The notes beneath the pieces were generated by a model. It did no database searches. It was given only the letters and a program-made list of their open reading frames with translations, and was not told the origin of the DNA. Positions 3,815 to 58,307 of a stretch of 64,000 nucleotides of DNA are shown piece after piece. Location: sequence record PZ583741.1. One strand, given 5' to 3'. How positions within the stretch are numbered: the first letter of the stretch is position 1; every line of letters begins with the position of its first letter. This DNA is from a phage. A program made the position numbers and the translations under genes.

Positions 3815-4274
3815 ATACTGGCGACCACTGGCAATTATTATAATTGTTGCTGCTGGCGCGTTGTGGGTTCGTAGTGAAGTCATCAACTACGGCGACCAGC
3901 GATACGCAGAAGGCAAAGCTCAGGCAATCGCAGAACAGAAGGCCGCAGACGAACAAGAGGAGCAACGACGCAATGCAGAACTGCAAAAGATTCAGGCCGA
4001 CGCACAGCAAAGGATTGATGCTGCGCGTAATGATTCTGTCAATGCTGCTGCTAAGTCTGGCAGGTTGCGCGCAGAAACAGAGCGCATCCGTAAGCTCGCA
4101 GAGCGTTATACCGGGACTCAGCCAGCAAGCGTACCAACCAGAAAGGTCATCGTTATGCTCACCCAATTGCTTGACGAGAGCAATGATGCTTATAGACGAA
4201 CAGCGGAGGAAGCTGACAGATATTACAACGCTGGACTGACTTGTCAAAAACAGTACGAATCACTAATTAAATGA
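3795..4274 (+). CDS. i-spanin (Rz-like)
   Basis: N-terminal TM helix then charged coiled-coil region; position after endolysin. Confidence 0.65.
   Translation: MMSILAKYWRPLAIIIIVAAGALWVRSEVINYGDQRYAEGKAQAIAEQKAADEQEEQRRNAELQKIQADAQQRIDAARNDSVNAAAKSGRLRAETERIRKLAERYTGTQPASVPTRKVIVMLTQLLDESNDAYRRTAEEADRYYNAGLTCQKQYESLIK
4018..4239 (+). CDS. o-spanin (Rz1-like lipoprotein) embedded in +1 frame of i-spanin
   Basis: signal peptide ending in lipobox LSLAGC; wholly inside 3795..4274. Confidence 0.6.
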   Translation: MLRVMILSMLLLSLAGCAQKQSASVSSQSVIPGLSQQAYQPERSSLCSPNCLTRAMMLIDEQRRKLTDITTLD

Positions 4275-4279
4275 TATAA

Positions 4280-4370
4280 TCACAAGTGCAGCTAGTCCGG
4301 CCAGACGAAAAGCAACTCATCACTGCCTGCTGCATCCCGCCAAAAGATGACCCTGATGAGGAATCCAATA
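4280..4370 (+). promoter_or_regulatory. conserved 5' leader element, copy 1 (hairpin CUCAUCA / UGAUGAG overlapping the SD GAGGAA)
   Basis: ~85 bp with high identity to 42207..42290. Confidence 0.5.
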
Positions 4371-4871
4371 ATGACTCAAGAAGAATTAAAAAGCATCCTT
4401 AATTACAACAGTGAAACGGGAAAATTCCAATGGGTATCAATGAAGTGGAAAAAGTCAAACCGTGTTGGCAGCAAAAAGTCTAACGGCTATATGCAGGTGG
4501 CTATAGGTGGCAAGGTTTATTATCAGCACAGACTGGCTTGGCTTTATATGACTGGTGAGATGCCTGACTCAGAGATTGATCATATAAATGGAATTAGGGA
4601 TGACAACAGGTGGTGTAACTTGAGGTTAGCAACAAGATCACAAAATGAGATGAATACAGTACTCTCATCAGCAAACACCTCTGGTGTAAAAGGGGTTAGT
4701 TGGGATAAGAGGAATAAGAAATGGTGCGCAACAATAGTGATAAATAGAAAAACAGTATGGCTAGGAAGACATTCATCCATCGAGTCAGCAAAAGCGGTGA
4801 TAGAAAGAGCAAGAGCACATATACATGGTGATTTTGCTTGCGATGGAATAAGGCAAGAGAAGCGGGATTGA
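4371..4871 (+). CDS. HNH homing endonuclease with AP2 DNA-binding domain
   Basis: HRLAWLYMTGE...IDHINGIRDDNRWCNLR HNH motif; C-terminal AP2-like region. Confidence 0.85.
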   Translation: MTQEELKSILNYNSETGKFQWVSMKWKKSNRVGSKKSNGYMQVAIGGKVYYQHRLAWLYMTGEMPDSEIDHINGIRDDNRWCNLRLATRSQNEMNTVLSSANTSGVKGVSWDKRNKKWCATIVINRKTVWLGRHSSIESAKAVIERARAHIHGDFACDGIRQEKRD

Positions 4872-17067: not shown

Positions 17068-17458
17068 TGTTGTGGTGGCCGGTGCTGATCTCCGGCATAA
17101 GGCGCTTATTCGGCGGCGTCGAGCTTGCTTATTCGCTTGAGCCATCCTCGTGAGTCAGCCACGTCCCACTGCGCATCAGCCTGCGCATTCACCACAACGG
17201 AAAGAGCACTGATGCGCTCACTAGGGACTCCTTAGCCATAACCAACGGGCTTCTGGTACACCAATGCTCTTACCTGTTGTGTGCCCATTATTAATCACAG
17301 CGGGCCACTGCGCCGAATTTGTTTACAAGGAATCGGAAGACCTTGCTGACTTACAGGCTATTACGCCGCTATCAGAACAACATCATCGTTTGCATTTATC
17401 TTTGTGGTCAGTTTCTAAAAAGTCCGCAAAGTCGCTCACGAAAACTATCTGAGATACA

Positions 17459-17501
17459 ATCTACACCACAAAAATAACGCTGTCAACACCTGTGATATAA
17501 T
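17459..17501 (+). promoter_or_regulatory. tail-gene promoter: ATCTACACCA - N12 - TGTCAACACC - TGaTATAAT
   Basis: extended -10 at 17493..17501; same architecture as 19179..19227. Confidence 0.45.
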
Positions 17502-19256: not shown

Positions 19257-19964
19257 ATGAGCAATCGCACGCCACTAACAGAAATCGGGGAGATGCGCAT
19301 CTCGCTTTCTGACAGGAGTTTTTTCTTCAAGCCATCATTCCGCGCCATGAATGAAATCGGCACACCAAAAGAAATCGTCGAGGTGTATGCTAAGCTCAAC
19401 GGCATTGATTATGTTGCGCCATTGCAGCACGTGGAATACCTGCCATTTGGCGCGCAGATGCAGGTCATGAAAACCATCAGTAAGCCTGTGTATGGTCGCC
19501 ATGTACTGAGCGCGGCCTATATTGTCATGCAGTCATGCAGTGAAGATGATATTTCTGTGCTGATTGGTGGATGGAAACCAACACCACGCGGCGTGCGATA
19601 TGTCCCCAGCATCATGCCAGTGAGCGACATTATTATTATTGCGCGCAACCTGATGCAGCACGGCATCATTGGTAAGTCCCCACTCAAAGTACCTGAGCGT
19701 CTGGAAGAGCATGGCAAGAAAACAACAAACGAGTTTCATGCGTCGCAATACATCATCTCAGCACGCACGCATTTCGACATGACGCGCGATGAGGCTGAAA
19801 ACCTGTCCATGACAGAGTTTCAGATGATGATTAAGAATAAATATCCAGAGCCGAAAGGGTTAACGAAAGAAGAGCGCGCGGCAGAGTATAATCAGGCCAA
19901 AGCAGACCGTGAGCGCATGAAGGCACTGGCTGAACGCAAAGCGAAAAAAGCGAGGAATACATAA
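19257..19964 (+). CDS. putative tail assembly chaperone
   Basis: immediately upstream of tape measure gene. Confidence 0.45.
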   Translation: MSNRTPLTEIGEMRISLSDRSFFFKPSFRAMNEIGTPKEIVEVYAKLNGIDYVAPLQHVEYLPFGAQMQVMKTISKPVYGRHVLSAAYIVMQSCSEDDISVLIGGWKPTPRGVRYVPSIMPVSDIIIIARNLMQHGIIGKSPLKVPERLEEHGKKTTNEFHASQYIISARTHFDMTRDEAENLSMTEFQMMIKNKYPEPKGLTKEERAAEYNQAKADRERMKALAERKAKKARNT

Positions 19965-22339
19965 TGGCTGAAGAAGTCGGCGGAATTGTCTATGAAGTCG
20001 GGATGGATGTTAAAGGCCTGAAGGCTGGCGCGACAACAGCCAACAAGACTTTAGATGACCTTGAATCATCAACCAACAAAACCACAAGCGCGCTTGGCAG
20101 GCTGGATAAAAATGCCAGAAATGCTGGCAGCGGAATGAAGAATGCTGGCGGCGCAGCTTCAGGGCTAAAAACCAGTATGTCGATGCTGGCTAGCGCAATA
20201 TCCGTGTCACTGATTATCGAATGGGGTAAGCGATTCCTTGAGGTTGCTGATAACATGACGCAGCTTCAGGCAAGGATTGCTCGCCTGTCAACTGATGCGA
20301 AAACCGCGAACGAAACATTCAGTTCACTGGCAAATATCGCCTCAACCACTGGTGCAAGCCTGAGTGACACTACGAAGTTGTGGGAGACATTGACGTCATC
20401 ACTGAAAGAGGCTGGAGCGACAAATGCGCAGGTTCTGAACCTTACCGATACCCTGCAAAAAATAGGACGAATCGGCGGGTCATCAACCGAAGAAATGGCG
20501 AACGCATTACGTCAGTTCGGTCAGTCAATCGCATCTGGCACAATCCGTGCAGAAGAGTTCAACTCCATCCTTGAGCAGATGCCTGAGCTTGCTCGCCAGA
20601 TAGCTGCTGGTCTTGGTATTTCAATGGGTGAACTTCGAGCCAGAATGCTCGACGGAAAACTGACGGCGGAAGATGCACTGAACGCCATTCAGGACAGAAC
20701 AAGAGTCGTCAATGCTGAGTTTGAAAAACTTCCTCGCACAATGGATCAGGCTGTTGGTTCTCTTGAGATTTCATTCTCCAAACTTGTGGTTGCCGTTAAC
20801 GATGCTACTGACGCATCAAAAACAGCAGTTGAGATTATCGACCAGCTGGCAAAATACATTGATTTCCTCGGTGACAAGTCAACCAGCACGAGCGATAAAA
20901 TTCTGTCTCTCGCCACGGTTATATCGAAGTTAAACCCGGGCGCGTGGGCGCAAATGGGAGTTGATGCGCTTTTTGGTGATGACGATATTGAGAAGCAAAA
21001 ACAATATAACGATCAGGTTGAGCGATTCGTTAAGGCATCGGCGGAAGGCTACGAACAGACAAAAAAACAGGCTGAAGCAACAAAACACCTGAAGATTGCG
21101 CAAGCACCAACAAAAGATAAAAAAGGCAAAGGAAAGGGTAAGAGCGCAGAGGAACGTCAGGCTGAATCAGTCGCTGAAAAGCTGGAGAAATTACGCCAGC
21201 AGACCATGCTTAATGCCACATCTACCAGCGAATTATCCCGCGAGCAAGCCATTCTCAATGCTCAGCAATCACTTGGAAAGGCGGCGACTCAGGAGCAAAT
21301 AAAACTGGCTGGTGAATATGCCGCTAAGATTTGGGACCAGAAGAATGCGTTGAAGGAGCAGGCAGAAGCGGAGAAGGAAAGGCAGCGTGTAGAAAAATCA
21401 TATCAGGGACTACGCGCCATTGCGTCACCAACGACTGGCATTGACAGTGAATACCAGCAACGCATGGCTGACCTTGATGCTTATGCTGCTGCGTACCCGC
21501 AGAAAATTACGGAGATTGAACAGACTCGCGCAGCAATTGAAGCGCAATATCGCCAGCAGCGAATGGATGCCATGTGGGCAGAATGGCAGCAACAAAGCCT
21601 CGGAGCGCAACTTTTCGGTACGGCGCTTGATTCGGCAATGAGTACGGCATCAAACAGCATAACCGGATTACTGACAGGTACAATGAGTGTACAGGATGCA
21701 ATGCGCAGCCTCGGCTCTACTGTACTGAACTCTCTGGTAAATAGTTTCGTCGAAATGGGTGTGCAGTGGGTTAAATCTGCGGTTATGGGGCAGACTGCGC
21801 AGGTTGCAGCAACCGCTACCACAACAGCGGCGCAAACAGCAGGACTGGCAACTACCACAGCCGCCTCAACTGCGGCGGCAGCCACCACTACGGCGGCATG
21901 GACCCCAGCTGCAATTGTTGCTTCAATCGGTTCATTCGGCGGTGCGGCTGCAATTGGTGTAGGTGCTGTACTTGGGGCGTTGGCGATGGGGATAGCTGGC
22001 AAGCGCAAGAATGGCGGTCCTGTTAGCGCCGGAAGCATGTACGAAGTGGGCGAAAATGGCTTGCCTGAAATATTCCAGGCGTCCAACGGTCGCCAGTACA
22101 TGATTCCCGGTAACGATGGCTCAGTTATCAGCAACAAAGACCTGACAGGCGGTGGTAGTGGCGTTGTGGTTTATAATAACGTGATAAATAACAGCTCAGC
22201 GCAGGTTAGCAGCAGCGCCAGAGATAACGGTGACGGCAGCGTGACGATTGAGACGATTGTGAGTGATATTTCTGAAAATGGCCCGATAGGGCAAGCCATC
22301 TCAAGAAACTACAACACCAACAGACGAGCAACAGAGTAA
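19964..22339 (+). CDS. tail tape measure protein
   Basis: 791 aa, coiled-coil, Ala/Thr/Gly-rich hydrophobic segment. Confidence 0.85.
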   Translation: MAEEVGGIVYEVGMDVKGLKAGATTANKTLDDLESSTNKTTSALGRLDKNARNAGSGMKNAGGAASGLKTSMSMLASAISVSLIIEWGKRFLEVADNMTQLQARIARLSTDAKTANETFSSLANIASTTGASLSDTTKLWETLTSSLKEAGATNAQVLNLTDTLQKIGRIGGSSTEEMANALRQFGQSIASGTIRAEEFNSILEQMPELARQIAAGLGISMGELRARMLDGKLTAEDALNAIQDRTRVVNAEFEKLPRTMDQAVGSLEISFSKLVVAVNDATDASKTAVEIIDQLAKYIDFLGDKSTSTSDKILSLATVISKLNPGAWAQMGVDALFGDDDIEKQKQYNDQVERFVKASAEGYEQTKKQAEATKHLKIAQAPTKDKKGKGKGKSAEERQAESVAEKLEKLRQQTMLNATSTSELSREQAILNAQQSLGKAATQEQIKLAGEYAAKIWDQKNALKEQAEAEKERQRVEKSYQGLRAIASPTTGIDSEYQQRMADLDAYAAAYPQKITEIEQTRAAIEAQYRQQRMDAMWAEWQQQSLGAQLFGTALDSAMSTASNSITGLLTGTMSVQDAMRSLGSTVLNSLVNSFVEMGVQWVKSAVMGQTAQVAATATTTAAQTAGLATTTAASTAAAATTTAAWTPAAIVASIGSFGGAAAIGVGAVLGALAMGIAGKRKNGGPVSAGSMYEVGENGLPEIFQASNGRQYMIPGNDGSVISNKDLTGGGSGVVVYNNVINNSSAQVSSSARDNGDGSVTIETIVSDISENGPIGQAISRNYNTNRRATE

Positions 22340-22370
22340 AAAGAAGCCCCTCACGGGGCTTTGTTCATTA
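22340..22370 (+). terminator. rho-independent terminator
   Basis: hairpin agcccctcacggggct. Confidence 0.55.
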
Positions 22371-23430
22371 TCTCGCTCATTAATTCAGGTGAGTATTTCA
22401 GCCATTCTGTTGCCCCATCAAAACCCGTCAGTCCTGCGCTTTCATATTTCTTATGGTAATACTTTTCAATGCGCATGGCTTCGGCTCCGGTCGTTTTTAT
22501 TTTATGTATGAGGTTGAAGTCGAATGGTGTTCCTGATTTAAGTTGCGATAATCTTTTTCTGATTTTATTAGTTATTCCAACCTTAATAATTCCATCGGCC
22601 ATCAAGAAATACACATATCCGGTCAATGATGGATTATATCCACCTTTTGCACAAGAAGGGCAGCCACTACCTTTCATATGTGTATTTGGTGATTGCATGA
22701 ATATCCCATGAATAGGGCAAACTATTTTTACCTTACTCATCACATTTCTATAATCAACAAGATGATAGTCATATCTTGAATCGTGAATTTTATTTGACCT
22801 GATGATGAACTCACCTACCTTTAAAGTTCTTCCTTCAACTCTAGACTGAATGCCGCATGACGGACACCCTTTGCCGTTTACATGTGATATGGCTCTCTGA
22901 GTAAATAACCCGTGTATGTTGCATTTAATATTAACATCGGCATCCATGCCATTAAAATTAGCAGCAGAGTAATCATATCTCAATCCATGCCTAGCAACAG
23001 CCCTAGAAATAAAACTATCAATAGAATGCGTTTTCTTTTCGGATATCCTTTTATATCCGCACAATCTACACCCTAAACCTTCAAGGTGTTTATAAGGAAG
23101 CTGTTCGAAATCCCCATGGGTTGCGCATGTTATTGTTATTTTCGTGTGTGAGTTTATATATTCAACTTTAGAATAGTCATAAGAGTCACCATGCTTTGCA
23201 ATCGCATCAGTCACAAACTCACGCGTTGTTTTCCTCTTACCTCCAGAGCATGATTGGCACCCGGCCCCATTCAAATGAGCGTCTGGAGTTTGCTCAAAAT
23301 CACCGTGATAATGGCACGTTATAATTATCTTCATCTTTGAACGGATGTACACTGATTTATCATAAACGTACTTATCGCCATGAACCGATTTAGCTTTGGC
23401 AATGAATTCTTCGGTAGTTAGCTTGCGCAT
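22351..23430 (-). CDS. GIY-YIG (T5orf172-type) nuclease with four N-terminal tandem zinc-binding repeats
   Basis: four ~65-aa repeats of C..HG.F.Q.P..H..G.GC..C; C-terminal GYVYFL...KVGIT GIY-YIG-like domain. Confidence 0.7.
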   Translation of the reverse strand: MRKLTTEEFIAKAKSVHGDKYVYDKSVYIRSKMKIIITCHYHGDFEQTPDAHLNGAGCQSCSGGKRKTTREFVTDAIAKHGDSYDYSKVEYINSHTKITITCATHGDFEQLPYKHLEGLGCRLCGYKRISEKKTHSIDSFISRAVARHGLRYDYSAANFNGMDADVNIKCNIHGLFTQRAISHVNGKGCPSCGIQSRVEGRTLKVGEFIIRSNKIHDSRYDYHLVDYRNVMSKVKIVCPIHGIFMQSPNTHMKGSGCPSCAKGGYNPSLTGYVYFLMADGIIKVGITNKIRKRLSQLKSGTPFDFNLIHKIKTTGAEAMRIEKYYHKKYESAGLTGFDGATEWLKYSPELMSEIMNKAP

Positions 23431-23564
23431 TTTGAACCCTCGGTTAAAGGTGGTTTGAAGTGATGCAGCAGGCGATAACCAATCGCTTTTCGGACGCCTC
23501 CTAGCTGCACTTATTATTGTACCATCAGCGTGCTAAAATACAACAATACGAGATGGAGACTATC

Positions 23565-27366
<3,802 letters not shown>

Positions 27367-42206: not shown

Positions 42207-42290
42207 GCGGCTAGGGGGCACCCGAAAAGCGACTCATCACCGCCTGCCGCATTCACTTCAATGATGCCCTGATGAGGAATCTATATATGG
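42207..42290 (+). promoter_or_regulatory. conserved 5' leader element, copy 2 (same hairpin/SD arrangement as 4280..4370)
   Basis: aligned by eye to copy 1. Confidence 0.5.
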
Positions 42291-44806
42291 CACGCAAAAG
42301 ACTGTCAGCACCAGCAATTGAAAAACTCGAAGAGATTATTGGCGATGGCGTGATTGATACGCCTGAATCCGCGGTGTTCGGTGTTGTTAATACAGATAAG
42401 CAGATTGTTCGCAAACTAAAAATGACGCAAAGCGGAGTTGATGACGTTAGCGACTCTGATATTAACGTTGATCACCTGATACCAGAAAAGCTGGAAAAGC
42501 TACTTTACCCCAAGCGAAATAAGATTGTGTTTGGCGGGCGCGGATGCTTAGCCATCGGCACAATGGTTAGGATGTTTGATGGTAGCCTAAAACGCGTAGA
42601 GGATATCGCTGTTGGCGATAAGGTTATGGGTCCAGACAGTAAACCACGAAATGTTTTAAGCATCTGCCGTGGGTTTGATGACATGTATACGGTTCATCAA
42701 AAATATGCTGAGGACTACACTGTCAACTCAAGTCACATACTGTCATTACGAAAGATTCCATCTGCTATCAGTGACGAGACAAAAACACCGGATGGTAAAA
42801 GAATTTATCGTTATTACCCAAATGACCCTGAAATACTTAATATCGGTGTTTCAGAATATTTGTCGCGCGCAACTTCCACGAAGTTCCGTCATGTCTTTAA
42901 AGGGTGGCGAACAGGATGGGATTTTCAGGAACAAAGCGTTCCAATTGACCCGTACTTTCTTGGTTTATGGTTAGGTGATGGCTCATCTCGTAGTGTTGAA
43001 GTATGCACGCCTGATCCAGAGATAGTTGACTACCTTCACGGTGTGGCAAGCCAATATGGGATGCAGGTAAAGGTTCGCGACGATGATAGATGCCCTGTCT
43101 ATGCGATAACTAATGGTCGAGCTGCTGGCATGGGGAAAAACACCAACCCTTTACTAACTAAAATGCAGCAGCTTGGGGTGATTAATAATAAACACATACC
43201 TGACTGCTATATTAAAAACAGCAGACAGGTAAGACTTCAGATTCTGGCTGGGCTATTGGATACTGATTCGCATTACCACAAAGAAAAGAAAAGCTATTGT
43301 TTTACATCAATAAATAAAGATATAGCCTTCTCTTTGATGGATGTGGCAAGATCACTTGGCTTCAAGTCAAGCATAATCAAAAAGACCGATGTCACCTTTG
43401 AGTATAAAGGTGAGAAAAGAATATACGAAAAGGATGTGTGGGAGGTGTTCGTTAGTGGTGAACTTCATACAATCCCATGCCGAGTAAAAAGGAAGATAGC
43501 AGAGAAAACCAAGTCAACCCGTGGAAAGATGACTGAGGTGTCATTGTCTTATGCCGGGCATGGTGTATACGCTGGATTCACTCTTGATGGCGATCATCTT
43601 TTCTTGCTTGCTGATGGCACAGTTACACACAACAGCGGAAAAACAAGAACAGTAACTACAATACTTACGGAGCGTGCACGCTTTAAGCCTGACAGGATAG
43701 CTTGTTTCCGTGAGATTCAGCAGTCTATTGAGGATAGTTCGTATCAGGAACTGAAAGACGAGATTGACAGGAAGGGCGAGACAAAAGAGTTTCGCGTAAT
43801 CAACAACGAAATAACACACAAGGTAACGAAAGCAAAGTTCCGCTTTAAAGGTCTGTATCGCAACCAGACGACCGTTAAAGGCTTTGCTGGCATTACAGTC
43901 GCTTGGGTTGAGGAGGCTGAAAACGTTAGCCAGACAAGCTGGGAAATCCTCACTCCAACTGTTCGCGCTGATGGCTCTGAGATATGGGTGACATTCAACC
44001 CAAATAAGGAGCATGACCCCACATGGAAGACGTGGGTTGAGCCGTTTTATAGCAAACTGCGCTCAAGTGGCGGTATTTACGAAGACGAAGAAAACCTGAT
44101 TATTGAATGTAACTATTCAGATAATCCGTGGTTTTGGGATACGCCACTACCCAGCCAAATGCAACGAATGAAAGAGACAGACTTCGACCGCTATCAATGG
44201 GTTTGGGGTGGTCGCTTTAACAAGAGGAATGACGAGCAGGTCTTTGGCGGCAAATGGCGCATTGATAACTTTGAGGTTAAACCTGAATGGCACGGCCCAT
44301 ACTTCGGGATGGACTTCGGGTTTTCCACTGATCCTACCGCAATGATTGAAGTTTACATCGAAGAACTACCAGGTGCACGGCGCAACATTTATATTAATCG
44401 CGAATATGGCAAGGTTGGCCTTGAGATTACCGATACACCAGCTGCGATGGAGCAATCATTCCCGATGGCTAAGCGCGCGCGATGGTATGCAGACTGCGCT
44501 CGACCGGAAACCATCAGCCACATCAAGCGTTCTGGCTTTGATATTCATCCATGCACAAAATGGCCGGGAAGCGTTGAGGATGGCGTAACGTGGCTGCGCG
44601 GCTGCGACAGTATCATCATCCATGAGCGATGCAAGGAAATGCAGAATGAAGCGGCAATGTACAGCTATAAGGTTGATAAGCTGACCGGAAATGTACTCAC
44701 GGATATTGTTGATGCATATAACCATTACTGGGATGCCGTTCGCTATGCGCTTAATGACCACATCGTCCAGCGCGGTAGCGGAATGCTAATCCGGCGCAGG
44801 AGATAA
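42287..44806 (+). CDS. terminase large subunit, intein-containing
   Basis: Walker A GRG|SGKT split by intein; C-terminal nuclease region. Confidence 0.9.
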   Translation: MARKRLSAPAIEKLEEIIGDGVIDTPESAVFGVVNTDKQIVRKLKMTQSGVDDVSDSDINVDHLIPEKLEKLLYPKRNKIVFGGRGCLAIGTMVRMFDGSLKRVEDIAVGDKVMGPDSKPRNVLSICRGFDDMYTVHQKYAEDYTVNSSHILSLRKIPSAISDETKTPDGKRIYRYYPNDPEILNIGVSEYLSRATSTKFRHVFKGWRTGWDFQEQSVPIDPYFLGLWLGDGSSRSVEVCTPDPEIVDYLHGVASQYGMQVKVRDDDRCPVYAITNGRAAGMGKNTNPLLTKMQQLGVINNKHIPDCYIKNSRQVRLQILAGLLDTDSHYHKEKKSYCFTSINKDIAFSLMDVARSLGFKSSIIKKTDVTFEYKGEKRIYEKDVWEVFVSGELHTIPCRVKRKIAEKTKSTRGKMTEVSLSYAGHGVYAGFTLDGDHLFLLADGTVTHNSGKTRTVTTILTERARFKPDRIACFREIQQSIEDSSYQELKDEIDRKGETKEFRVINNEITHKVTKAKFRFKGLYRNQTTVKGFAGITVAWVEEAENVSQTSWEILTPTVRADGSEIWVTFNPNKEHDPTWKTWVEPFYSKLRSSGGIYEDEENLIIECNYSDNPWFWDTPLPSQMQRMKETDFDRYQWVWGGRFNKRNDEQVFGGKWRIDNFEVKPEWHGPYFGMDFGFSTDPTAMIEVYIEELPGARRNIYINREYGKVGLEITDTPAAMEQSFPMAKRARWYADCARPETISHIKRSGFDIHPCTKWPGSVEDGVTWLRGCDSIIIHERCKEMQNEAAMYSYKVDKLTGNVLTDIVDAYNHYWDAVRYALNDHIVQRGSGMLIRRRR
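42545..43633 (+). mobile_element. intein (363 aa) with LAGLIDADG homing endonuclease domain inside terminase Walker A motif
   Basis: starts CLAIGT, ends VTHN followed by extein Ser; two LAGLIDADG motifs (LGLWLGDGSS, LAGLLDTDSH). Confidence 0.8.
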
Positions 44807-46222: not shown

Positions 46223-47461
<1,239 letters not shown>

Positions 47462-47516
47462 GTTATCTTACAAGGCATCTCGTGGGGTGCCTCAGTAAGA
47501 CAACCGGAGATAGAGC

Positions 47517-47702
47517 ATGAAAACCAAAATGATTCACAAGTCAGAAGTAAAAATTGGCGACACGGTAATTCACTGCGGTGAGATGAAGACGGTTGGCATG
47601 GAAACATTTGGCAAGGATGAGTTTATGGGACTCCTACTGTGGGGTGATAGCTATCGCTGCGGCTACAAGATGGTTGAGGTTGTAACTGAGGTTAAGTTTT
47701 GA
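47517..47702 (+). CDS. hypothetical early protein
   Basis: 61 aa, GGAGA RBS. Confidence 0.5.
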   Translation: MKTKMIHKSEVKIGDTVIHCGEMKTVGMETFGKDEFMGLLLWGDSYRCGYKMVEVVTEVKF

Positions 47703-47746
47703 ATAGCACGAATTGCTAAACCTTCCGCAAGGCCGTTTGATATAGT
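47703..47746 (+). promoter_or_regulatory. B-module promoter cassette 1: ATAGCACGAATTGCTAAA - N20 - TATAGT
   Basis: palindrome TAGCA-N5-TGCTA; -10 hexamer 38 bp after motif start. Confidence 0.5.
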
Positions 47747-47966
47747 GGTCTTGTTGAAGCAAAACAATCAATCATGGGGTTACACAAATGCAAGTTTATA
47801 AATCACCTGGCGGCGCTCGTTACGTTGTTGTTGATGGCATGGTGTACTGCAAGCCGCTAACCGGATTCACATTTCGCTCGTCAATGACGGTGGATCGATA
47901 CCTTTAGTTGATAGGTTGGGGATTTCTTAGGTTTGAAAAGGTAATCAAGCCTATAATGACCGTCAA

Positions 47967-48010
47967 ATAGCACGAATTGTTAAAATGGGATTCATCCTGA
48001 ATGGTATGAT
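47967..48010 (+). promoter_or_regulatory. B-module promoter cassette 2 (variant TTGTTA; -10 TATGAT)
   Basis: same 38-bp spacing. Confidence 0.4.
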
Positions 48011-48162
48011 CCACACATCAACCACAAGAATGGAAGTTAAGTGACGATATACGAACATAAATTCAGCAGTATGGGTATTGATATGCTCCTGCACTATGTA
48101 GACGAAAAATACGCAAATCTCATGCTTAATACGCATGGCGGCACAATAACGAGGATTGAGAT

Positions 48163-48426
48163 ATGAGTAAGTACAACCGTGAGATTATCGGCCTGGATGG
48201 GGAAGTAACCACAGTGGATGTATATCGAGTCCTGGATGCATTCCAGGTAACAGACCAAGCTATACAGCACGCAATCAAGAAGATGCTGTGCACTGGACTT
48301 AGAGGGCATAAGGACTATCTTACTGACATTGAAGACTCCATTGAATCACTGCAAAAAGCCAAGGAACTTTACGATCAGCGCAAGAGTTACGAGCGGCGAT
48401 ACAATTTATCTTTTACAGATAAATAG
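48163..48426 (+). CDS. hypothetical early protein
   Basis: 87 aa, GAGGA RBS; stop TAG lies inside next motif. Confidence 0.5.
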   Translation: MSKYNREIIGLDGEVTTVDVYRVLDAFQVTDQAIQHAIKKMLCTGLRGHKDYLTDIEDSIESLQKAKELYDQRKSYERRYNLSFTDK

Positions 48427-48466
48427 CACGAATTGCTAAACCCGCTCAGAAGGGTTTTGTTATAGT
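48423..48466 (+). promoter_or_regulatory. B-module promoter cassette 3
   Basis: motif plus TGtTATAGT extended -10. Confidence 0.5.
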
Positions 48467-48495
48467 TAGTTCACACCAAACGAGAGGAAATAAAG

Positions 48496-48714
48496 ATGAT
48501 TACTATTAACCTGTCAGATAAACAAGCAGCAGAACTCAAGTCCATGCTTTCAATCTTTGAGAAGCCAAATGACCAGGTAATTGCCAAAGAGGTAGTGGCT
48601 CAGATTAACAACCAGCAATTCGACGTAAGTGACTTCGAGTCATCGCGCCAGTACGAGGCAATGAGTGTTAATGCTGCATACCTGACTAACTGGGATAATG
48701 CGACTAAGAAATGA
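48496..48714 (+). CDS. hypothetical early protein
   Basis: 72 aa, GAGAGGAAA RBS. Confidence 0.5.
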   Translation: MITINLSDKQAAELKSMLSIFEKPNDQVIAKEVVAQINNQQFDVSDFESSRQYEAMSVNAAYLTNWDNATKK

Positions 48715-48860
48715 TTTTATACATACATGAGTACTGGACGGGGAAGTTTAACACAGTTCGACATGTCCGTGTTTACGAAGATTATGTAAATGCATTCAAT
48801 CAGCAGAAGGTTCTTGGTGGCACCATCAAGGTTTGCGATGTTGTGGATGAGATTTACTAA
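48711..48860 (+). CDS. small hypothetical protein (49 aa)
   Basis: manual ORF, ATGA overlap. Confidence 0.35.
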   Translation: MILYIHEYWTGKFNTVRHVRVYEDYVNAFNQQKVLGGTIKVCDVVDEIY

Positions 48861-48904
48861 ATAGCACGAATTGCTAAAGCAGTCTTGGGGTAATTTGTTA
48901 TAGT
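48861..48904 (+). promoter_or_regulatory. B-module promoter cassette 4
   Basis: motif plus TGtTATAGT. Confidence 0.5.
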
Positions 48905-48934
48905 TACCACATCAAAACTAACGAGGTTATAAGA

Positions 48935-49039
48935 ATGAGTGAATTAATTAAAACTATCGCGGACTATCCATTTGCTTCGCTTTTTCTTGCTATTGCAATA
49001 TATGAAATTGTAAAGATTATTGTCAAATGTATTAAATAG
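48935..49039 (+). CDS. small membrane peptide (34 aa)
   Basis: manual ORF, GAGG RBS. Confidence 0.3.
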   Translation: MSELIKTIADYPFASLFLAIAIYEIVKIIVKCIK

Positions 49040-49079
49040 CACGAATTTCTAAAACATTATCGGGGTATCTTACTATAGT
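49036..49079 (+). promoter_or_regulatory. B-module promoter cassette 5 (variant TTTCTA)
   Basis: motif plus TATAGT at fixed spacing. Confidence 0.45.
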
Positions 49080-49109
49080 TACCCCATCAAAACGAAACAG
49101 GAAGCAGAA

Positions 49110-49289
49110 ATGAAATTTCAACAAGGCGAGCCAAAGCTACAAGTCAACCACTTCGATGGTTACGCAACATTCATCATAGCCCAGGCTTGCGGGATGCGAG
49201 ATGAACCTCACGTTCACACCATTCACTTAACAGAAGAACAGGCACGAGAACTGGCTTACGAAATTCTTGAGCAATTGAACCGAATTTAA
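49110..49289 (+). CDS. hypothetical protein (59 aa)
   Basis: GGAAG RBS. Confidence 0.4.
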   Translation: MKFQQGEPKLQVNHFDGYATFIIAQACGMRDEPHVHTIHLTEEQARELAYEILEQLNRI

Positions 49290-49338
49290 CGCGCATAAAA
49301 CGCATTCTAACGAACGATAATTTAAGTAAGGCGATTCT

Positions 49339-49497
49339 ATGATTAAGGTTGTTTTTATTGCTGATGATGGTGTTTATCCATTATTATCTAATGGTGATGT
49401 TATTTACGTGCAAGACATGGGTTGCGCATATATCTATACAGATGAGTTTGGTGACTCTTATTATATTGAGAAATGGGAAGTTGAGGAGATTGCATGA
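49339..49497 (+). CDS. small protein, paralog 1 (52 aa)
   Basis: MIKVVFIADDG...; similar to next ORF. Confidence 0.4.
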   Translation: MIKVVFIADDGVYPLLSNGDVIYVQDMGCAYIYTDEFGDSYYIEKWEVEEIA

Positions 49498-49655
49498 TTA
49501 AGCTTGTTTATGTGGGTGAGAGTGATTATGTGGCGCTCATTCAGAGTGGTGATGTGTTCTTCGCAGAGATGAGTGATGATGGTAGTTTCTACATCGTAAA
49601 GAACAAGAATGGCGAAGATATCTACCTTTCAAAAGATGAGGTCATCATTTACTAA
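49494..49655 (+). CDS. small protein, paralog 2 (53 aa)
   Basis: MIKLVYVGESD...; tandem duplicate. Confidence 0.4.
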   Translation: MIKLVYVGESDYVALIQSGDVFFAEMSDDGSFYIVKNKNGEDIYLSKDEVIIY

Positions 49656-49780
49656 TGGATAACTACGAATCACCAGTAGAGTGGTGTAAGCGAATGCAGG
49701 ACGAAGCTAAAACTGGTGAAGAGGCGATGGCTTACTACGAACTGGCGCAAATTTGGATGGAACGTGAGAAGAAAGAATGA
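49655..49780 (+). CDS. small hypothetical protein (41 aa)
   Basis: manual ORF with overlapping start/stop. Confidence 0.3.
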   Translation: MDNYESPVEWCKRMQDEAKTGEEAMAYYELAQIWMEREKKE

Positions 49781-49920
49781 GCTTCACTGAATACGTTATC
49801 GCATGCGAGAGACTGGTCTTTGACATGAAGACTTTTCACTGGTTCATCATCAAGGATTTAATTAAGCCTTACAAGCAAGGCGTTACGCCAGAGGCTTTTG
49901 TTAAGTCATTCTACAAATAG
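49777..49920 (+). CDS. small hypothetical protein (47 aa)
   Basis: manual ORF; stop TAG inside next motif. Confidence 0.35.
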   Translation: MSFTEYVIACERLVFDMKTFHWFIIKDLIKPYKQGVTPEAFVKSFYK

Positions 49921-49960
49921 CACGAATTGCTAAACGCAGTCGCCATGGATGGCATATAAT
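49917..49960 (+). promoter_or_regulatory. B-module promoter cassette 6 (-10 TATAAT)
   Basis: motif plus consensus -10 at fixed spacing. Confidence 0.5.
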
Positions 49961-49993
49961 TACCACATCAACACAACGAAGAGAGATATAATA

Positions 49994-50140
49994 ATGAAAA
50001 ATGTATTTGGCATCAGCTATGAAGAAGAGTTTGTTGATTGCCTTATTTACCTGAATGAGATCTACGGAGATGAGTTTGAATGTGATGGTGATTCACTTCA
50101 TGCAAAAATAGAACTTGAAACATTTGGGGAGGTTGTCTAA
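49994..50140 (+). CDS. hypothetical protein (48 aa)
   Basis: ATG at 49994 in ORF 49949..50140. Confidence 0.4.
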   Translation: MKNVFGISYEEEFVDCLIYLNEIYGDEFECDGDSLHAKIELETFGEVV

Positions 50141-50382
50141 TGATGTTTGGATTATCAGAAGCACACTTCAACGCAGTTAAACGCCAGGCAGCAAAGTTGA
50201 ACGAAGAGTACAGCAAGTTATCGCCAAAACAGCGCAAGGACGATAAGCAGGTTGCGGCATTGATTTCAAAGATGTGGGAGCCAGTTTTCACAATCATTAG
50301 TCGAGACCGCTTTGTTTGGACCAGTGGGTATCTTAAGGGTAGAGTAGGTCACGACGAGAATGGGAATAGTCTTTATGAGTAA
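50140..50382 (+). CDS. hypothetical protein
   Basis: 80 aa, GGGAGG RBS. Confidence 0.5.
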   Translation: MMFGLSEAHFNAVKRQAAKLNEEYSKLSPKQRKDDKQVAALISKMWEPVFTIISRDRFVWTSGYLKGRVGHDENGNSLYE

Positions 50383-50557
50383 TTGCAATAAGCATAGGTA
50401 TAAGTACGCTTTCAGTTCAAAACTTACAGCCCACGACATAAAACTACTTAATCTAGGTTACTTCAAATCCAGCAAAAATGAAAATCATGTCGGGGATTAT
50501 AGATCATTTTATGAGTGCGTTAATTGCGGCGAGATGATTGCGATGGGGGTATTATGA
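50360..50557 (+). CDS. hypothetical protein (zinc-finger-like)
   Basis: 65-aa ORF; start uncertain (50360 or 50375). Confidence 0.35.
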   Translation: MGIVFMSNCNKHRYKYAFSSKLTAHDIKLLNLGYFKSSKNENHVGDYRSFYECVNCGEMIAMGVL

Positions 50558-50640
50558 GTGAGTTAACAATCTGGTTTATCGCAGGTCTGATTACTTGGGC
50601 TTACTTTTTAATCGTTTAGATTGAGCTTGTTAAAAAGAGC

Positions 50641-50669
50641 TTGCATCACTGACAGGAATTATCTAATAT
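50641..50669 (+). promoter_or_regulatory. sigma70-like promoter (TTGCAT - 17 bp - TAATAT) upstream of tRNA
   Basis: hexamers and spacing read from sequence. Confidence 0.4.
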
Positions 50670-50838
50670 TAACCACGTAGACAAACGAGGCCACCAGGTG
50701 GCAACGGCGCACGGAGCGCACTACACGGCAAGTCCGTAGCTCATTAAGTAGCGTATGCGGCATTAAGACCTAGCGCAAATAGGCAGATTAATCGGCTGTA
50801 TCAGGCAGCCCCGGAGCCGTAACCGGGACTCATTCAAA

Positions 50839-50916
50839 GCTCTGCTAGCTCAATTGGACAGAAGCAACGACCTTCTAAGTCGCAGGTTACTGGTTCGAAT
50901 CCAGTGCGGAGCGCCA
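50839..50916 (+). tRNA. tRNA-Arg (anticodon UCU), CCA encoded
   Basis: 7-bp acceptor stem, GG in D-loop, anticodon loop CUUCUAA, T-loop TTCGAAT, 3' GCCA. Confidence 0.75.
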
Positions 50917-50931
50917 ATAAAGGAGTTCATT

Positions 50932-51114
50932 ATGTGGGATGTGAAGTTGTCAATTCGCTTAATGGGCCGCTCGTGCAAGAATTGCACTCAAGAATACATC
51001 GCGTCAGTTGCCGCAATCAGCGCTGAGGATGCGGTAGCGAAAGTAAAGGAGATGTCAGGCGCTGACCCTGACACCCACAAATTCCTGGTAGCTTACGTTC
51101 GTGAGCAAAAGTAA
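50932..51114 (+). CDS. hypothetical protein (60 aa)
   Basis: AAGGAG RBS; track ORF 50854 overlaps the tRNA so start moved. Confidence 0.45.
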   Translation: MWDVKLSIRLMGRSCKNCTQEYIASVAAISAEDAVAKVKEMSGADPDTHKFLVAYVREQK

Positions 51115-51154
51115 AAAGTGTTATACCCTCGTTAAGTTTCGTTTCTCTCGTTGT

Positions 51155-51184
51155 TTTTAGCCCTCGCTTGAGGGCTTTTTTTCG
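51155..51184 (+). terminator. rho-independent terminator
   Basis: hairpin agccctcgcttgagggct plus T6. Confidence 0.6.
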
Positions 51185-51225
51185 TCTGCAATATGCTATA
51201 ATCTGGAATCAACAAAGGAGGATTT

Positions 51226-51732
51226 ATGAGCAAAGCAGCATTAAAGATGGGTGAGGGAAATTTCAAGGCGCTCTACAACAAGAAGTATGGCGACATTGCT
51301 ATGGTGGCAATCAACCGCAAGTACACGCCTGAGGAAGTTTTCGATTTCGCCGTTAGATACTTCTCCTGGGCTGAGAGCGAGGCAATTAAGGCTATTGAGA
51401 CGGCTGCTTTCCAGGGTGTGGTTAGCGAGAGCCTCGTACACAAGCCTAGAGTATTCACCTTAACTGGGCTGGCGCTCTTTATGGGTGTCAATATCAATAG
51501 ATTCGCTCGCTGGCGTACTGAGGCTGGATACTCTGATGTGATGGAATTCATTGATAACGTTATTTACGAGCAGAAGTACCAGCTTGGTGTCGCAGGCATC
51601 ATCAACTCTACCATCGTTGGTAAAGAGCTAGGAATTGATAAGCCGCAGGAGATTAAGATTAGCAACAACTCCACAGCTAACGATGTTGACAGTATGAAGG
51701 AAGCACTTGAGTCCGTGATCAGTAAGCTATAG
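51226..51732 (+). CDS. terminase small subunit
   Basis: 168 aa, HTH-like TLTGLALFMGVNINRFARW; AAGGAGG RBS; upstream of large terminase. Confidence 0.6.
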   Translation: MSKAALKMGEGNFKALYNKKYGDIAMVAINRKYTPEEVFDFAVRYFSWAESEAIKAIETAAFQGVVSESLVHKPRVFTLTGLALFMGVNINRFARWRTEAGYSDVMEFIDNVIYEQKYQLGVAGIINSTIVGKELGIDKPQEIKISNNSTANDVDSMKEALESVISKL

Positions 51733-51800
51733 CACTTATTGTTAAAAGAATGGGCCCAATCAATGAGATAATTGGGTCACTAACTTAACGAGGTGATGAT

Positions 51801-52313
51801 ATGAATTGGCATGATTATTTTGAATACAAAGATGGGAAGATTTACTGGAAAGATTACGATAGCGAGAAGCTTGGAAGGAGAAGGATACAGCGAAGATTCA
51901 TAGGGAAAGAGGTTGGCGGCATTGATAAAAGCCTAGGGTATGTTAGGGTAAACATGCCTGGTAAAAAATATTGGGTTCATAGAATAATCTGGGAAATGCA
52001 TAACGGAGCAATACCAGAAGGTATGCAAATTGACCATATAAATCATGTTAGAAATGATAACAGGATAGAAAACATTAGGTTAGTTACAATTCAGGAAAAT
52101 AGAAAGAATCAGTCAATAAATTCTAGGAATAAGACCGGGGTTACCGGAGTCTGCATAGTATCTAGGACTGGCAAGTATGTAGCTCAAATAAAAAAGGATG
52201 GAGAGAATATTCACTTGGGATTCTTTGATAATATTCACGACGCATCGATTGTCAGGGCGAGGGCTGAATTTATTCTTGGGTATCATAAAAACCACGGGAG
52301 GAAAGATGAGTGA
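51801..52313 (+). CDS. HNH homing endonuclease with AP2 domain, between terminase subunits
   Basis: HRIIWEMHNGAIPEGMQIDHINH...DNRIENIRLV; C-terminal GYHKNHG. Confidence 0.85.
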   Translation: MNWHDYFEYKDGKIYWKDYDSEKLGRRRIQRRFIGKEVGGIDKSLGYVRVNMPGKKYWVHRIIWEMHNGAIPEGMQIDHINHVRNDNRIENIRLVTIQENRKNQSINSRNKTGVTGVCIVSRTGKYVAQIKKDGENIHLGFFDNIHDASIVRARAEFILGYHKNHGRKDE

Positions 52314-53877
52314 TTTGATAGTTTGGGATGAGTTAAATCATGCGCAGAAGATGGCTATCAAGGCCATCTCTGAGCATAGTTTCGAGGGGTTCTTGCGGTG
52401 TTTCTTCCAGATAACTCAGGGCGAGAGATTCAAAATGAATTGGCATGCGAAGTACCTTTGCCGCGTCATTGATGAGATTCTTGAGGGTAAGAGAAAGGAT
52501 ACCATCATAAACGTATCTCCGGGATCTGCCAAAACCGAACTGTTTAGCATCCACTTCCCTGTATATAGCATGATTAAGATTAAGAAGGTTAGGAATCTTA
52601 GTTTGTCGTTCTCTGACTCATTGGTTAAGCGCAACTCCAAGCGCGTAAGGGATTTGATAAAATCAAAGGAGTTCCAGGAGCTTTGGCCCTGCACCTTTGG
52701 AACGTGCAGGGATGACGAGATTCAGGTTCTTGATGAGAATGGCAAAGTTAGGTTTGAGTCTATATCTAAGGCGATGGCTGGTCAGGTGACAGGAAGCAGG
52801 GGCGGCTACATGACTGACGATTATAGTGGTTGCATAATGCTGGATGACCCACTAAAGCCTGATGACGCGTTAAGTAATGTAAGAAGAGAGGCTGTCAATA
52901 TGCTTCTCAAGAACACAATCCGTTCACGTCGAGCTAGCTCAGTAAAGGGAAAAGAAACGCCAATACTTTCCGTGCAGCAAAGACTTCATGTTCTGGACAC
53001 TAGCCACTTCATGGAGTCAGGGCAAATGGGCATAAAGTTCGACGTAGTGAAAGTTCCAGCCATAGTCACAGAGGATTACGCCGACACGCTTCCTGATTGG
53101 ATCAAACAACAATTTATTGATGATGTTCTTTCATCACCATTTGTAGAGCGGGATGGAGTTAAGTATTACAGCTACTTTCCGGCAAAGGAGTCAATAGAAG
53201 ACCTGATGGCTATGTGGGATGCTGACCCGTACACGTTCCTTAGTCAGTACCAGCAGGAACCTGTAGCTCTGGGCGGCAATCTTATTAATGTGGATTGGTT
53301 CCAGCGCCTTAGTGATACATTCATACCTCCAGCCAAGTATGATTATCGATTCATCACATGCGATACCGCGATGACCACTAAAAGTTACAGCGACTTCTCT
53401 GTTCTTCAGTTGTGGGGCTATAAAGATGCTAAGATTTACCTTATTGATCAGCGCAGGGGTAAATGGGAGGCCCCAGAGTTGGAGGCTGAACTTCTGGACT
53501 TTGAGAAGAAATCAAGGGCAACCAGTCAGTCAGATGGTATCCTCAGAAAGATTATTATCGAGAAGAAAGCGTCTGGTATCGGCCTGATTCAATCAGCTGG
53601 CAGGGTTATGCGAACACCGATAGAGCCATACGTACCGGATAATGACAAGCTAACCAGGGTGATGAGTGCACTACCACAGATTAAGGCTGGTAACGTAGTT
53701 CTTCCAGAGTCATCGCCGTGGCTAAACGGATTGCTCACTGAGGTTGCGGCTTTTACGGCAGATGACTCGCATAAGCACGACGACCAAATTGACTGTCTAA
53801 CAATGGCGGTAAACCTTGTACTTAACATCGCTGATGATCCTAAGGCGAGACTGATGCGCATAGCGGGAATGAAATAG
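52306..53877 (+). CDS. terminase large subunit
   Basis: Walker A-like VSPGSAKTE; C-terminal nuclease Asp residues; overlaps HNH stop by 8 nt. Confidence 0.8.
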   Translation: MSDLIVWDELNHAQKMAIKAISEHSFEGFLRCFFQITQGERFKMNWHAKYLCRVIDEILEGKRKDTIINVSPGSAKTELFSIHFPVYSMIKIKKVRNLSLSFSDSLVKRNSKRVRDLIKSKEFQELWPCTFGTCRDDEIQVLDENGKVRFESISKAMAGQVTGSRGGYMTDDYSGCIMLDDPLKPDDALSNVRREAVNMLLKNTIRSRRASSVKGKETPILSVQQRLHVLDTSHFMESGQMGIKFDVVKVPAIVTEDYADTLPDWIKQQFIDDVLSSPFVERDGVKYYSYFPAKESIEDLMAMWDADPYTFLSQYQQEPVALGGNLINVDWFQRLSDTFIPPAKYDYRFITCDTAMTTKSYSDFSVLQLWGYKDAKIYLIDQRRGKWEAPELEAELLDFEKKSRATSQSDGILRKIIIEKKASGIGLIQSAGRVMRTPIEPYVPDNDKLTRVMSALPQIKAGNVVLPESSPWLNGLLTEVAAFTADDSHKHDDQIDCLTMAVNLVLNIADDPKARLMRIAGMK

Positions 53878-53917
53878 CACAAATTGCTAAACACTAAAGC
53901 CACGGATGGCGTATAGT
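53874..53917 (+). promoter_or_regulatory. B-module promoter cassette 7 (variant ATAGCACAAATTGCTAAA)
   Basis: terminase stop TAG is inside motif; TATAGT at fixed spacing. Confidence 0.45.
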
Positions 53918-53946
53918 TACTTCACACAAAAGAGAGGAGAAGAAAG

Positions 53947-54279
53947 ATGAAGGCAGTATTTAAAGGTTATAAAAAAGCTGGTCGTTTGGAATTTACTATT
54001 GGTAAGATTTATGAGTTATCAGAAACACGCGGAGTGGGTGGATATATGGTGGTGACTGATGACGGTGGCTTTCGGGCAATATTTATCCCAGACAACATCT
54101 ATGATTTCGAGGTGTTGATCCCAGATGAATTTATCGGTAAAGAAAAGCAATTCAAATATTACATCAATGGCGAAGCTGTTTCTAAAGTCAAGTTCGATGA
54201 TACACTGTTATGCGTCAAGGAATTTAAATCTGATGGCATTGATACATCATCAATCAAGTTCGAAGTAAAATTCGAGTAA
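53947..54279 (+). CDS. hypothetical protein
   Basis: 110 aa, GAGAGGAG RBS, own promoter and terminator. Confidence 0.5.
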   Translation: MKAVFKGYKKAGRLEFTIGKIYELSETRGVGGYMVVTDDGGFRAIFIPDNIYDFEVLIPDEFIGKEKQFKYYINGEAVSKVKFDDTLLCVKEFKSDGIDTSSIKFEVKFE

Positions 54280-54298
54280 CCACAAAAGCTATGATAAA

Positions 54299-54325
54299 CT
54301 AGCCCCTAAATGGGGCTTTTTTATT
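54299..54325 (+). terminator. rho-independent terminator
   Basis: hairpin agcccctaaatggggct plus T6. Confidence 0.6.
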
Positions 54326-54335
54326 GGAGAAAAAC

Positions 54336-55562: not shown

Positions 55563-55631
55563 GAAGCAATGGCGACGACAGAGGAACCTAATGAATGATG
55601 AATTTGATGGCTTTTAGTGAGGAGAATTGGG

Positions 55632-56717: not shown

Positions 56718-56729
56718 GGAGTTATAAAC

Positions 56730-57239
56730 ATGGCAATTCGTTCCGTAGCACTGGCTGGTATGGTTTCTGATACCTCTCTGTATAACATCGACGGCGCTTG
56801 CGTAGTTGGCGGCAGCGATGCAATTCCGGTTGGTACTGTTGTTGGTGTAACAGCCGCTCAGCCTATAGATGGTCACAAAGTTGTTGGCCTTCCAGCTGTA
56901 ACTGGCACGGCAGTTAAACCTTATGGTGTTGTTGTTAAATCTCATTACGAGACTCCAGATGGCACAGCTCGCGTAAATGAAGCAGTTAACGTAATGACTC
57001 ATGGTCGCATCTGGGTTCGCACCACTTTAGCAGCCGCGCCAGTTTTTGGTAGCAAGGTTTTCGTAAACGCAAGTGGTGTAGTTGTTGCTGAAGCGGCTAC
57101 TACTACTTGGGAAACTGGTTTTACATTTGCTGGCGGTTACATCGCAAACACTGGCACAGACCCACAAAACCTGAGCGTTGATGGTGCCCTAGTTGAGGTT
57201 CAGCTTATCCAATCCACGGACTCAACCGTTGCAGCATAA
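56730..57239 (+). CDS. putative head decoration protein
   Basis: 169 aa between scaffold and major capsid genes. Confidence 0.45.
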   Translation: MAIRSVALAGMVSDTSLYNIDGACVVGGSDAIPVGTVVGVTAAQPIDGHKVVGLPAVTGTAVKPYGVVVKSHYETPDGTARVNEAVNVMTHGRIWVRTTLAAAPVFGSKVFVNASGVVVAEAATTTWETGFTFAGGYIANTGTDPQNLSVDGALVEVQLIQSTDSTVAA

Positions 57240-57253
57240 TAGTTAAGACTAAA

Positions 57254-58304: not shown

Positions 58305-58307
58305 TAA

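Follow-up and report, generated by a model that had tools for sequence, protein, structure and literature searches.

In a siphophage, the tape measure gene is separated from the tail genes that follow by a gene that runs antisense to its neighbors and is lacking in several close relatives of this phage, which raises the question of what kind of element it is and how it is expressed at such a junction. The gene is located in a window of 64,000 nucleotides (PZ583741.1), whose first 47.3 kb represent a siphophage that is ~90% identical to the Escherichia phages HC6 and ZCEC08 and to Salmonella phages of the Skatevirus/Swiduovirus type. Bases 1-131 are repeated at 47277-47406 with 99% identity, and therefore the genome of this first phage is taken to be ~47.3 kb long, its start appearing twice. 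The last 16.6 kb (47407-64000) belong to a different phage, are 95.8% identical to Escherichia phage vB_Ec-G8 and cover the terminase to tape measure region, so that the 64-kb window joins two phage genomes. Elsewhere in the first genome, Rfam gives a match to permuted tmRNA below threshold (27.1 bits vs 47) at 17361-17470 on the minus strand, where the stretch AUAAAUGCAAACGAU agrees well with the permuted tmRNA consensus; the annotation of ZCEC08 has a tRNA-Ile in the corresponding region.

The ORF encodes 359 aa and is present where an earlier note on this DNA had placed an antisense gene between tape measure and tail genes (Table 1). Its GC content of 0.39-0.40 is below that of the tape measure gene (0.50) and of the phage (0.46). 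The protein matches PHROG 681 “endonuclease” (E 2e-95) and has >7,000 matching relatives, with 985 GenBank phage records carrying one, whereas NCBIfam profiles gave no relevant match to it, and PDB sequence searches with the whole protein and with a C-terminal profile returned only the spurious hits MBD6, BLNK, RecA, and EF-Ts. As set out below, it is likely that the gene is the core of a cassette that codes for an active, free-standing homing endonuclease of the T5orf172 type (GIY-YIG superfamily). The earlier note had already read it as a homing endonuclease, and at the level of sequence this reading is now supported by an empty-site allele, by the divergence of a flank and by a published class of the same architecture.

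Table 1. Position of the cassette, its parts and related RNA copies in the 64-kb window
Feature	Position	Strand	Basis or remark
Tape measure gene	19964-22339	+	adjoins nuclease cassette
Inserted cassette, ~1.22 kb	22340-23564		GC 0.40; relative to empty-site phages
Hairpin AAGCCCC-TCAC-GGGGCTT	22344-22361		terminator-like on both strands (scan)
Nuclease ORF, 359 aa	22351-23430	-	ATG start; stop TGA 22351-22353
T5orf172/MUG113 domain, aa 261-359	22354-22650	-	GIY-YIG fold
Zinc module repeat 4, aa 193-260	22651-22854	-	motif and tblastn
Zinc module repeat 3, aa 125-192	22855-23058	-	motif and tblastn
Zinc module repeat 2, aa 62-124	23059-23247	-	motif and tblastn
Zinc module repeat 1, aa 1-61	23248-23430	-	motif and tblastn
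int-alpA-like structured 5' leader of the nuclease mRNA	23448-23513	-	Rfam RF02996 match
Extended -10-like box TGgTACAAT	23516-23524	-	putative nuclease promoter; read by eye
Extended -10-like box TGcTAAAAT in conserved GTGCTAAAATACA	23531-23539	+	putative promoter
5' end of downstream tail gene, apparent co-conversion tract	23565-23804	+	divergence from ZCEC08
int-alpA-like copy, 28.4 bits	4285-4349	+	directly upstream of HNH_3 + AP2 gene
int-alpA RNA copy, 42.6 bits, above gathering score	42204-42267	+	directly upstream of terL

Zinc module array and nuclease domain

The N-terminal part of the protein consists of four tandem zinc-type repeats, as the earlier note had described, each of which contains the motif C-x2-H-G-x-F-x-Q-x(4)-H-x(2)-G-x-G-C-x2-C. 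All 12 cysteines of the protein are found inside these motifs and every module offers four candidate zinc ligands (C-x2-H...C-x2-C), from which we infer that the repeats bind zinc and, in the way of related modules, DNA. Repeat 4 is related to the other three at the protein level (tblastn, E 1e-12 to 1e-13, 38-40% identity), and when modeled alone it gives a pLDDT of 87 and a pTM of 0.69. At the DNA level the repeats share 52-56% identity and no common word longer than 9 nt, and therefore they are regarded as old duplications. Domain search places them above the cut-off of DUF723 (35.5 bits vs 20.9), slightly below that of DUF4379 (23.4 bits vs 24.5) and below that of the Pfam family CapR (16.9 bits vs 24.2); therefore they are filed as DUF723-type repeats related to CapR. 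Among the best 120 hits the arrays comprise three to eight repeats; 82 of these proteins have a Vsr-like domain as C-terminal partner, and 23 have T5orf172. Since the nuclease partners differ in this way, the zinc array is a portable module that is found on unrelated nucleases. In a profile of 735 distinct repeats the scaffold is fixed and positions of low information alternate along the hairpin, an arrangement that would suit a specificity-determining surface. The cysteines and the first histidine are fixed in this survey by the selection pattern, whereas the conservation of the flanking G, F, Q, and second H (92-98%) is independent of it. To our knowledge, zinc modules of the DUF723/CapR type have neither a solved structure nor a known recognition rule. 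If each module reads a few base pairs, such modules could become a programmable DNA-targeting scaffold.

The C-terminal ~100 aa are matched by MUG113 (44.1 bits, cut-off 22.3) and T5orf172 (36.0 bits, cut-off 20), which both belong to the GIY-YIG clan of Pfam, so that the T5orf172-like domain proposed earlier is recovered alongside the zinc family. The generic GIY-YIG model PF01541 stays below its cut-off (12.1 bits vs 22.6). Family profile positions 1-98 of 101 are covered, and in the predicted structure the domain folds as a GIY-YIG alpha/beta core. Eight residues, Y274, K283, G285, N288, R293, E322, H326, and E342, are invariant across homologs from diverse phages, and the x-I/V-G motif reads K283-V-G285. 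An hhalign comparison with the catalytic domain of I-TevI, whose query sequence was confirmed against 1ln0 and 1mk0, aligned only 12 columns with a non-significant probability of 0.14; the columns pair K283 with Y17, G285 with G19 and R293 with R27, and the alignment was discarded as too weak for a residue map. Going by the order of secondary structure elements, E322 would correspond to E75 of I-TevI and to E180 of Odn.

It is conceivable that the protein is a domesticated or nuclease-dead DNA-binding regulator, in which the zinc array works as a site-specific repressor or regulator and the T5orf172 domain is inactive or only binds. Such a role would find parallels in the CapR and CasPR proteins, which use modules of this kind as repressors, in the original prediction of T5orf172 as a DNA-binding domain (quoted in PMC8096241) and in the fact that I-TevI also autorepresses. 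CapR and the CasPRs, however, have no nuclease domain, whereas it is complete here, and neither the invariance of the GIY-YIG-type motif residues across homologs from diverse phages nor the modeled GIY-YIG core fits a domain that has lost its function, which leaves the regulator as a very improbable alternative to the endonuclease. As an endonuclease, the protein may act through its four zinc modules, which would fold independently and be strung like beads on flexible linkers. Together they would read a long asymmetric DNA site and tether the C-terminal GIY-YIG-type domain, which would then cut nearby.

The cassette at the tape measure junction

Homology to ZCEC08 ends at 22339 and restarts at 23562. 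ZCEC08, HC6, and Skate have an empty site, at which the tape measure gene is coupled to the next gene through TAATG, and the ~1.22-kb insert sits exactly at this point. The TGA stop of the nuclease gene lies inside the loop of a terminator-like hairpin, in agreement with the earlier note, but the hairpin cannot be assigned to the tape measure gene as had been assumed there: all occupied sites have one, in either of two sequence versions, whereas the empty sites have none, and the hairpin is therefore part of the cassette and not the original tape measure terminator. Since the better T-run (CTTTTT) is on the minus strand, the hairpin probably terminates the nuclease transcript. At the other end, the box TGgTACAAT is located 6 nt upstream of the outer stem of the RNA leader described below. 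A two-hexamer promoter scan found nothing at the proposed promoters of the cassette, the nuclease promoter being missed due to its poor -35 region; the proposed promoters are extended -10 boxes read by eye, together with a statistical association of such boxes with the motif contexts. We propose that a host-type promoter with an extended -10 drives a minus-strand transcript, which would carry in this order the int-alpA-like leader, the coding region of 359 aa and the hairpin terminator just outside the tape measure gene.

The opposite strand appears to be equipped as well. The box TGcTAAAAT is followed by a GGAG Shine-Dalgarno (SD) sequence (23555-23558) and the ATG of the downstream tail gene (23565). 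The GTGCTAAAATACA element that contains the box is conserved at all occupied sites regardless of the cargo and is absent at empty sites. All occupied sites thus have a common frame, which consists of the GC hairpin after the tape measure stop, an antisense cargo, GTGCTAAAATACA and GGAG. It appears that the cassette replaces the TAATG coupling that the insertion destroyed, in that the plus-strand box may restart transcription of the downstream tail genes and the cassette would supply both promoter and ribosome-binding site for the first of them. Clean loss of the cassette may be costly for this reason, and homing endonuclease genes commonly decay after fixation (Barth, Dunham and Seed, 2023; PMC10448857), so that one could think of an inactive, decaying endonuclease gene that is kept for the promoter and the ribosome-binding site of its cassette. 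We regard this as very unlikely. The ORF is intact, with no frameshift and with all motif residues and the 12 zinc-ligand cysteines kept, and the protein recurs with 99% identity in public run assemblies (P0001, 72 member sequences) and with 94% identity at the same site of an IMG/VR contig (L012). Moreover, the slot of SeSz-2 is down to a 55-aa ORF and has nevertheless kept the frame.

The match spans at this slot fall into several size classes across the relatives, and the cargo varies. Phage swi2 has a 292-aa nuclease allele with three repeats, and 64795_sal3 has a 355-aa allele with four, which is the closest annotated homolog (58% identity). VSt472, Bas80, and BS5 carry a second T5orf172 lineage of 291-294 aa ending in ...TPQ. 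In KFS-SE2 the slot is occupied by an unrelated 216-aa antisense gene annotated as “amidase” (contig L003, 2364-3014, minus strand), which is also found in Segz_1, SB28, and CHRF_10023.1 and has the same hairpin and promoter frame without the RNA leader. The locus is thus a convenient natural test system, with empty, three-repeat and four-repeat alleles of two lineages and unrelated cargo, and near-identical phages that differ in their slots could be used to work out the target site and the contribution of each module. Two further observations concern the neighborhood. The gene that follows the cassette in Bas80 has 1371 nt (456 aa; L007, 2863-4233, plus strand) vs ~474 nt, and from about +450 nt it is unrelated to its counterpart in the phage studied here (24-48% alignment identity), so that it represents a fused or replaced tail gene beside the endonuclease. 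Skate, whose tape measure junction is empty, has an HNH homing endonuclease one gene downstream (L004, 2813-3304, minus strand), and therefore the neighborhood has more than one insertion point.

The flanks point to a recent arrival. Right behind the cassette, 66 mismatches to ZCEC08 are found within 23564-23804 (~240 nt, ~27%) compared to ~10% genome-wide, and this divergent segment, which resembles alleles from occupied sites, is followed by 637 nt (23805-24441) with zero mismatches to ZCEC08. On the other side, the tape measure gene is closer to KFS-SE2 than to ZCEC08 over its final ~150 nt. This pattern suggests that the cassette arrived with short co-converted flanks in genomes that are mosaic elsewhere, and it matches the published picture of T5orf172 homing endonuclease genes at boundaries of genetic exchange (PMC10448857). 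Co-conversion is not proven by it, since long identical runs occur elsewhere and non-nuclease cargo has the same frame. Two such runs, of 591 nt (26754-27344) and 280 nt (26473-26752) with no mismatch to ZCEC08, lie inside the gene of an 828-aa tail protein in a region that is otherwise ~90% identical; they look like mosaic exchange away from any identified nuclease gene.

The enzyme could also serve in exclusion or competition, cutting competing phages or satellites with no need to copy itself. Odn, a T5orf172 nuclease redirected against the parasite PLE (PMC8263062), sets a precedent, and the wide variation of the repeat arrays between alleles of the same site could reflect changing targets. 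We nevertheless judge this improbable as the primary role, because the locus bears the marks of a homing cassette: there is an allele with an empty site, the insert sits precisely where two genes meet in the neighborhood of essential tail genes, and a short stretch of divergent flank borders on identical sequence. A match in PADLOC, moreover, is marginal and partial (E 9e-4, 44 residues), and a reading as defense system was dropped. Exclusion and homing are mutually compatible. For homing, which we infer as the main activity, the enzyme would in a mixed infection cut cassette-free relatives at or near the junction of tape measure and next gene, and repair from cassette-bearing genomes would copy the cassette together with short flanking DNA.

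An int-alpA-like RNA leader

The int-alpA family of RNA motifs is linked to integrase and alpA genes, as its name says. Upstream of the nuclease gene, which has an SD-like GAGGG 8 nt before its ATG, an RNA of this type is predicted as 5' leader, with an outer stem around two hairpins and the conserved unpaired stretches CUAG, CGAAAAGCG and CCUG. The leader matches the 71-nt Rfam model RF02996 over its full length (positions 1-71), with a score of 30.1 bits that is below the gathering score of 35.8. Our own covariance model R1, built from ten motif copies, gives 70.1 bits, the leader being among its building sequences. A match is found in all six nuclease-bearing alleles of the site, from both lineages, and in none of four loci without nuclease. 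Nuclease-linked copies score 26.6-30.1 bits and have shorter hairpins, compared to 42-56 bits, above the RF02996 threshold, for copies upstream of non-nuclease genes; the former represent a divergent, sub-threshold sub-class of int-alpA. Over 11 distinct sequences 96.6% of the cells pair and 8 of 14 pairs change on both sides, in an alignment that was fitted to the RNA model and hence favors the structure. None of 500 shuffles reaches the observed values, and slid controls pair to 19-48%. Folded thermodynamically as a single sequence, the leader does not stand out (z = -0.26), and its lowest-energy fold departs from the model inside the outer stem, so that support for the structure is limited to covariation and the Rfam model. 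Two other kinds of Rfam match were dismissed as chance, isrG in the tape measure gene (14-32 bits vs a gathering score of 100) and a sub-threshold SOX2OT.

The signature CTAG..GAAAAGC..CCTG occurs in three copies in the 64-kb window vs 0.01 expected. Besides the leader, one copy precedes an HNH_3 + AP2 endonuclease gene of 174 aa, which has its own TGaTATAAT box (4285-4871 on the plus strand including the leader) and an architecture that corresponds to the “IPA-HNH” type of PMC10448857. The third copy precedes the intein-bearing large terminase gene (42272-44806, plus strand, 844 aa), in which a Hom_end-associated Hint domain and a LAGLIDADG domain lie inside Terminase_3/Terminase_3C. ZCEC08 has an HNH endonuclease gene just before terL, with only a weak match to the motif (16.9 bits).

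Of 80 IMG/VR loci with related T5orf172 genes, eight have the R1 motif 10-40 nt ahead of the gene and 72 are without it, and the idea that the leader accompanies this nuclease family everywhere was therefore given up; the eight motif-bearing loci seemingly belong to related siphophages, being located on contigs of 46.6-49.2 kb or on short fragments. A pattern scan through viral contigs, followed by the model, gave 51 motif matches, with the first downstream ORF usually starting 20-33 nt after the motif. About 40% of 35 distinct downstream proteins are homing-type nucleases (HNH_3, 8; other HNH, at most 3; T5orf172, 2; DUF559 with zinc repeats, 1), a figure that is biased, since the scan signature came from nuclease leaders and the cassettes are not independent. 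One contig of 45.9 kb has three copies, upstream of an HNH, a T5orf172 and an HNH-AP2 gene. A strong -10-like hexamer is located at most 8 nt upstream of the motif in 25 of 50 distinct contexts vs 2.3% of random positions (p ~1e-27), and therefore the RNA is placed at the very 5' end of the transcript. As a side observation, one short viral contig with an int-alpA-like motif (IMGVR_UViG_3300020049_009822) also bears three CRISPR-DR4 direct repeats with 60-nt spacing (4245-4392, minus strand).

These findings suggest that unrelated families of selfish nucleases use a common expression signal. We tentatively propose, with the odds slightly against it, that homing endonuclease cassettes carry the int-alpA-like RNA, directly behind a promoter and ~20-33 nt ahead of the start codon, as a portable expression module that sets the amount or timing of the nuclease; this divergent sub-class would be common to T5orf172, HNH_3-AP2, other HNH and Vsr-like enzymes in enterobacterial siphophages. 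It could work, for example, through stability of the mRNA 5' end, through translation initiation or through binding of a common phage or host factor. Our best guess is that the leader acts in cis on mRNA stability or translation. We consider a put-like role in antitermination unlikely, since transcription of the nuclease gene is expected to end at the hairpin and would not continue antisense into the tape measure gene. A literature search for int-alpA linked to homing endonucleases found no paper, and the leader might be the only part of the locus that is new. It gives the int-alpA motif its first functional setting and, if the proposed module is real, regulation of homing endonucleases would gain a testable handle and int-alpA a functional context.

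Comparison with known systems

The interpretation as homing endonuclease is right and the class is already published, so that the protein is one well-preserved example of a very large described class and alone changes little. T5orf172 homing endonucleases with repeated CapR/DUF723/DUF4397 zinc fingers were described by Barth, Dunham and Seed (2023; PMC10448857), and these genes are located near essential genes and recombine between repeats. Similar to gp53, gp121, gp130, gp165, and gp174 of the vibriophage ICP1 and their relatives, the protein has N-terminal zinc modules and a C-terminal T5orf172 domain and is free-standing, and the likeness extends to the position near essential structural genes, variable presence, varying repeat number and adjacent exchange boundaries. 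In contrast to ICP1, the hosts of the present cassette are Skatevirus/Swiduovirus-like siphophages of Salmonella and E. coli, and its repeats are of the DUF723 type with C-x2-H...C-x2-C instead of the CapR type with CxxC...CxC. Furthermore, the antisense orientation, the own terminator, the divergent promoters and the int-alpA-like leader do not appear in the consulted portion of PMC10448857.

DNA binding by CapR is cysteine-dependent, as shown experimentally (PMC8096241), and the anti-CRISPR repressors CasPR require their CapR domains for activity (bioRxiv 10.64898/2026.02.23.707548). CapR of PLE and phage CasPR thus have a related zinc module; however, they are transcriptional repressors with one or two modules and no nuclease domain, compared to four modules and a nuclease here. 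A 2025 paper (PMC12350094) reports fusions of an EDxHD/Vsr endonuclease domain with three to five domains of CapR/DUF4379/DUF723-like type, and the CapR-like repeat, which has thousands of homologs, is presented there as a modular DNA-binding domain associated with nucleases. The repeat module of these enzymes is the same as here and forms arrays of three to five or more units, but the nuclease domain is unrelated and some of the enzymes are encoded in group I or group II introns.

Odn (ICP1 gp88) has a catalytic domain of the same family and cuts dsDNA, an activity that is lost in the E180A mutant (PMC8263062). In our literature search it was the only T5orf172 enzyme found with both demonstrated dsDNA cleavage and a mutant of the catalytic Glu. 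Like the protein studied here, which has L297 at this position, Odn is without the usual His/Tyr of the first helix. Its DNA-binding part, however, is a satellite-derived RepA_N domain in place of the zinc array, and the enzyme serves in defense against the satellite and not in homing. I-TevI and the Seg proteins of T4, which are classical GIY-YIG homing endonucleases, have no detectable sequence similarity to the protein and use different DNA-binding modules; I-TevI has its nuclease at the N-terminus, the reverse of the order found here, and the YIG of the motif corresponds to KVG here, its second Tyr being replaced by Lys. What the locus adds is the well-resolved anatomy of the cassette, the footprint of its import and the common int-alpA-like leader.
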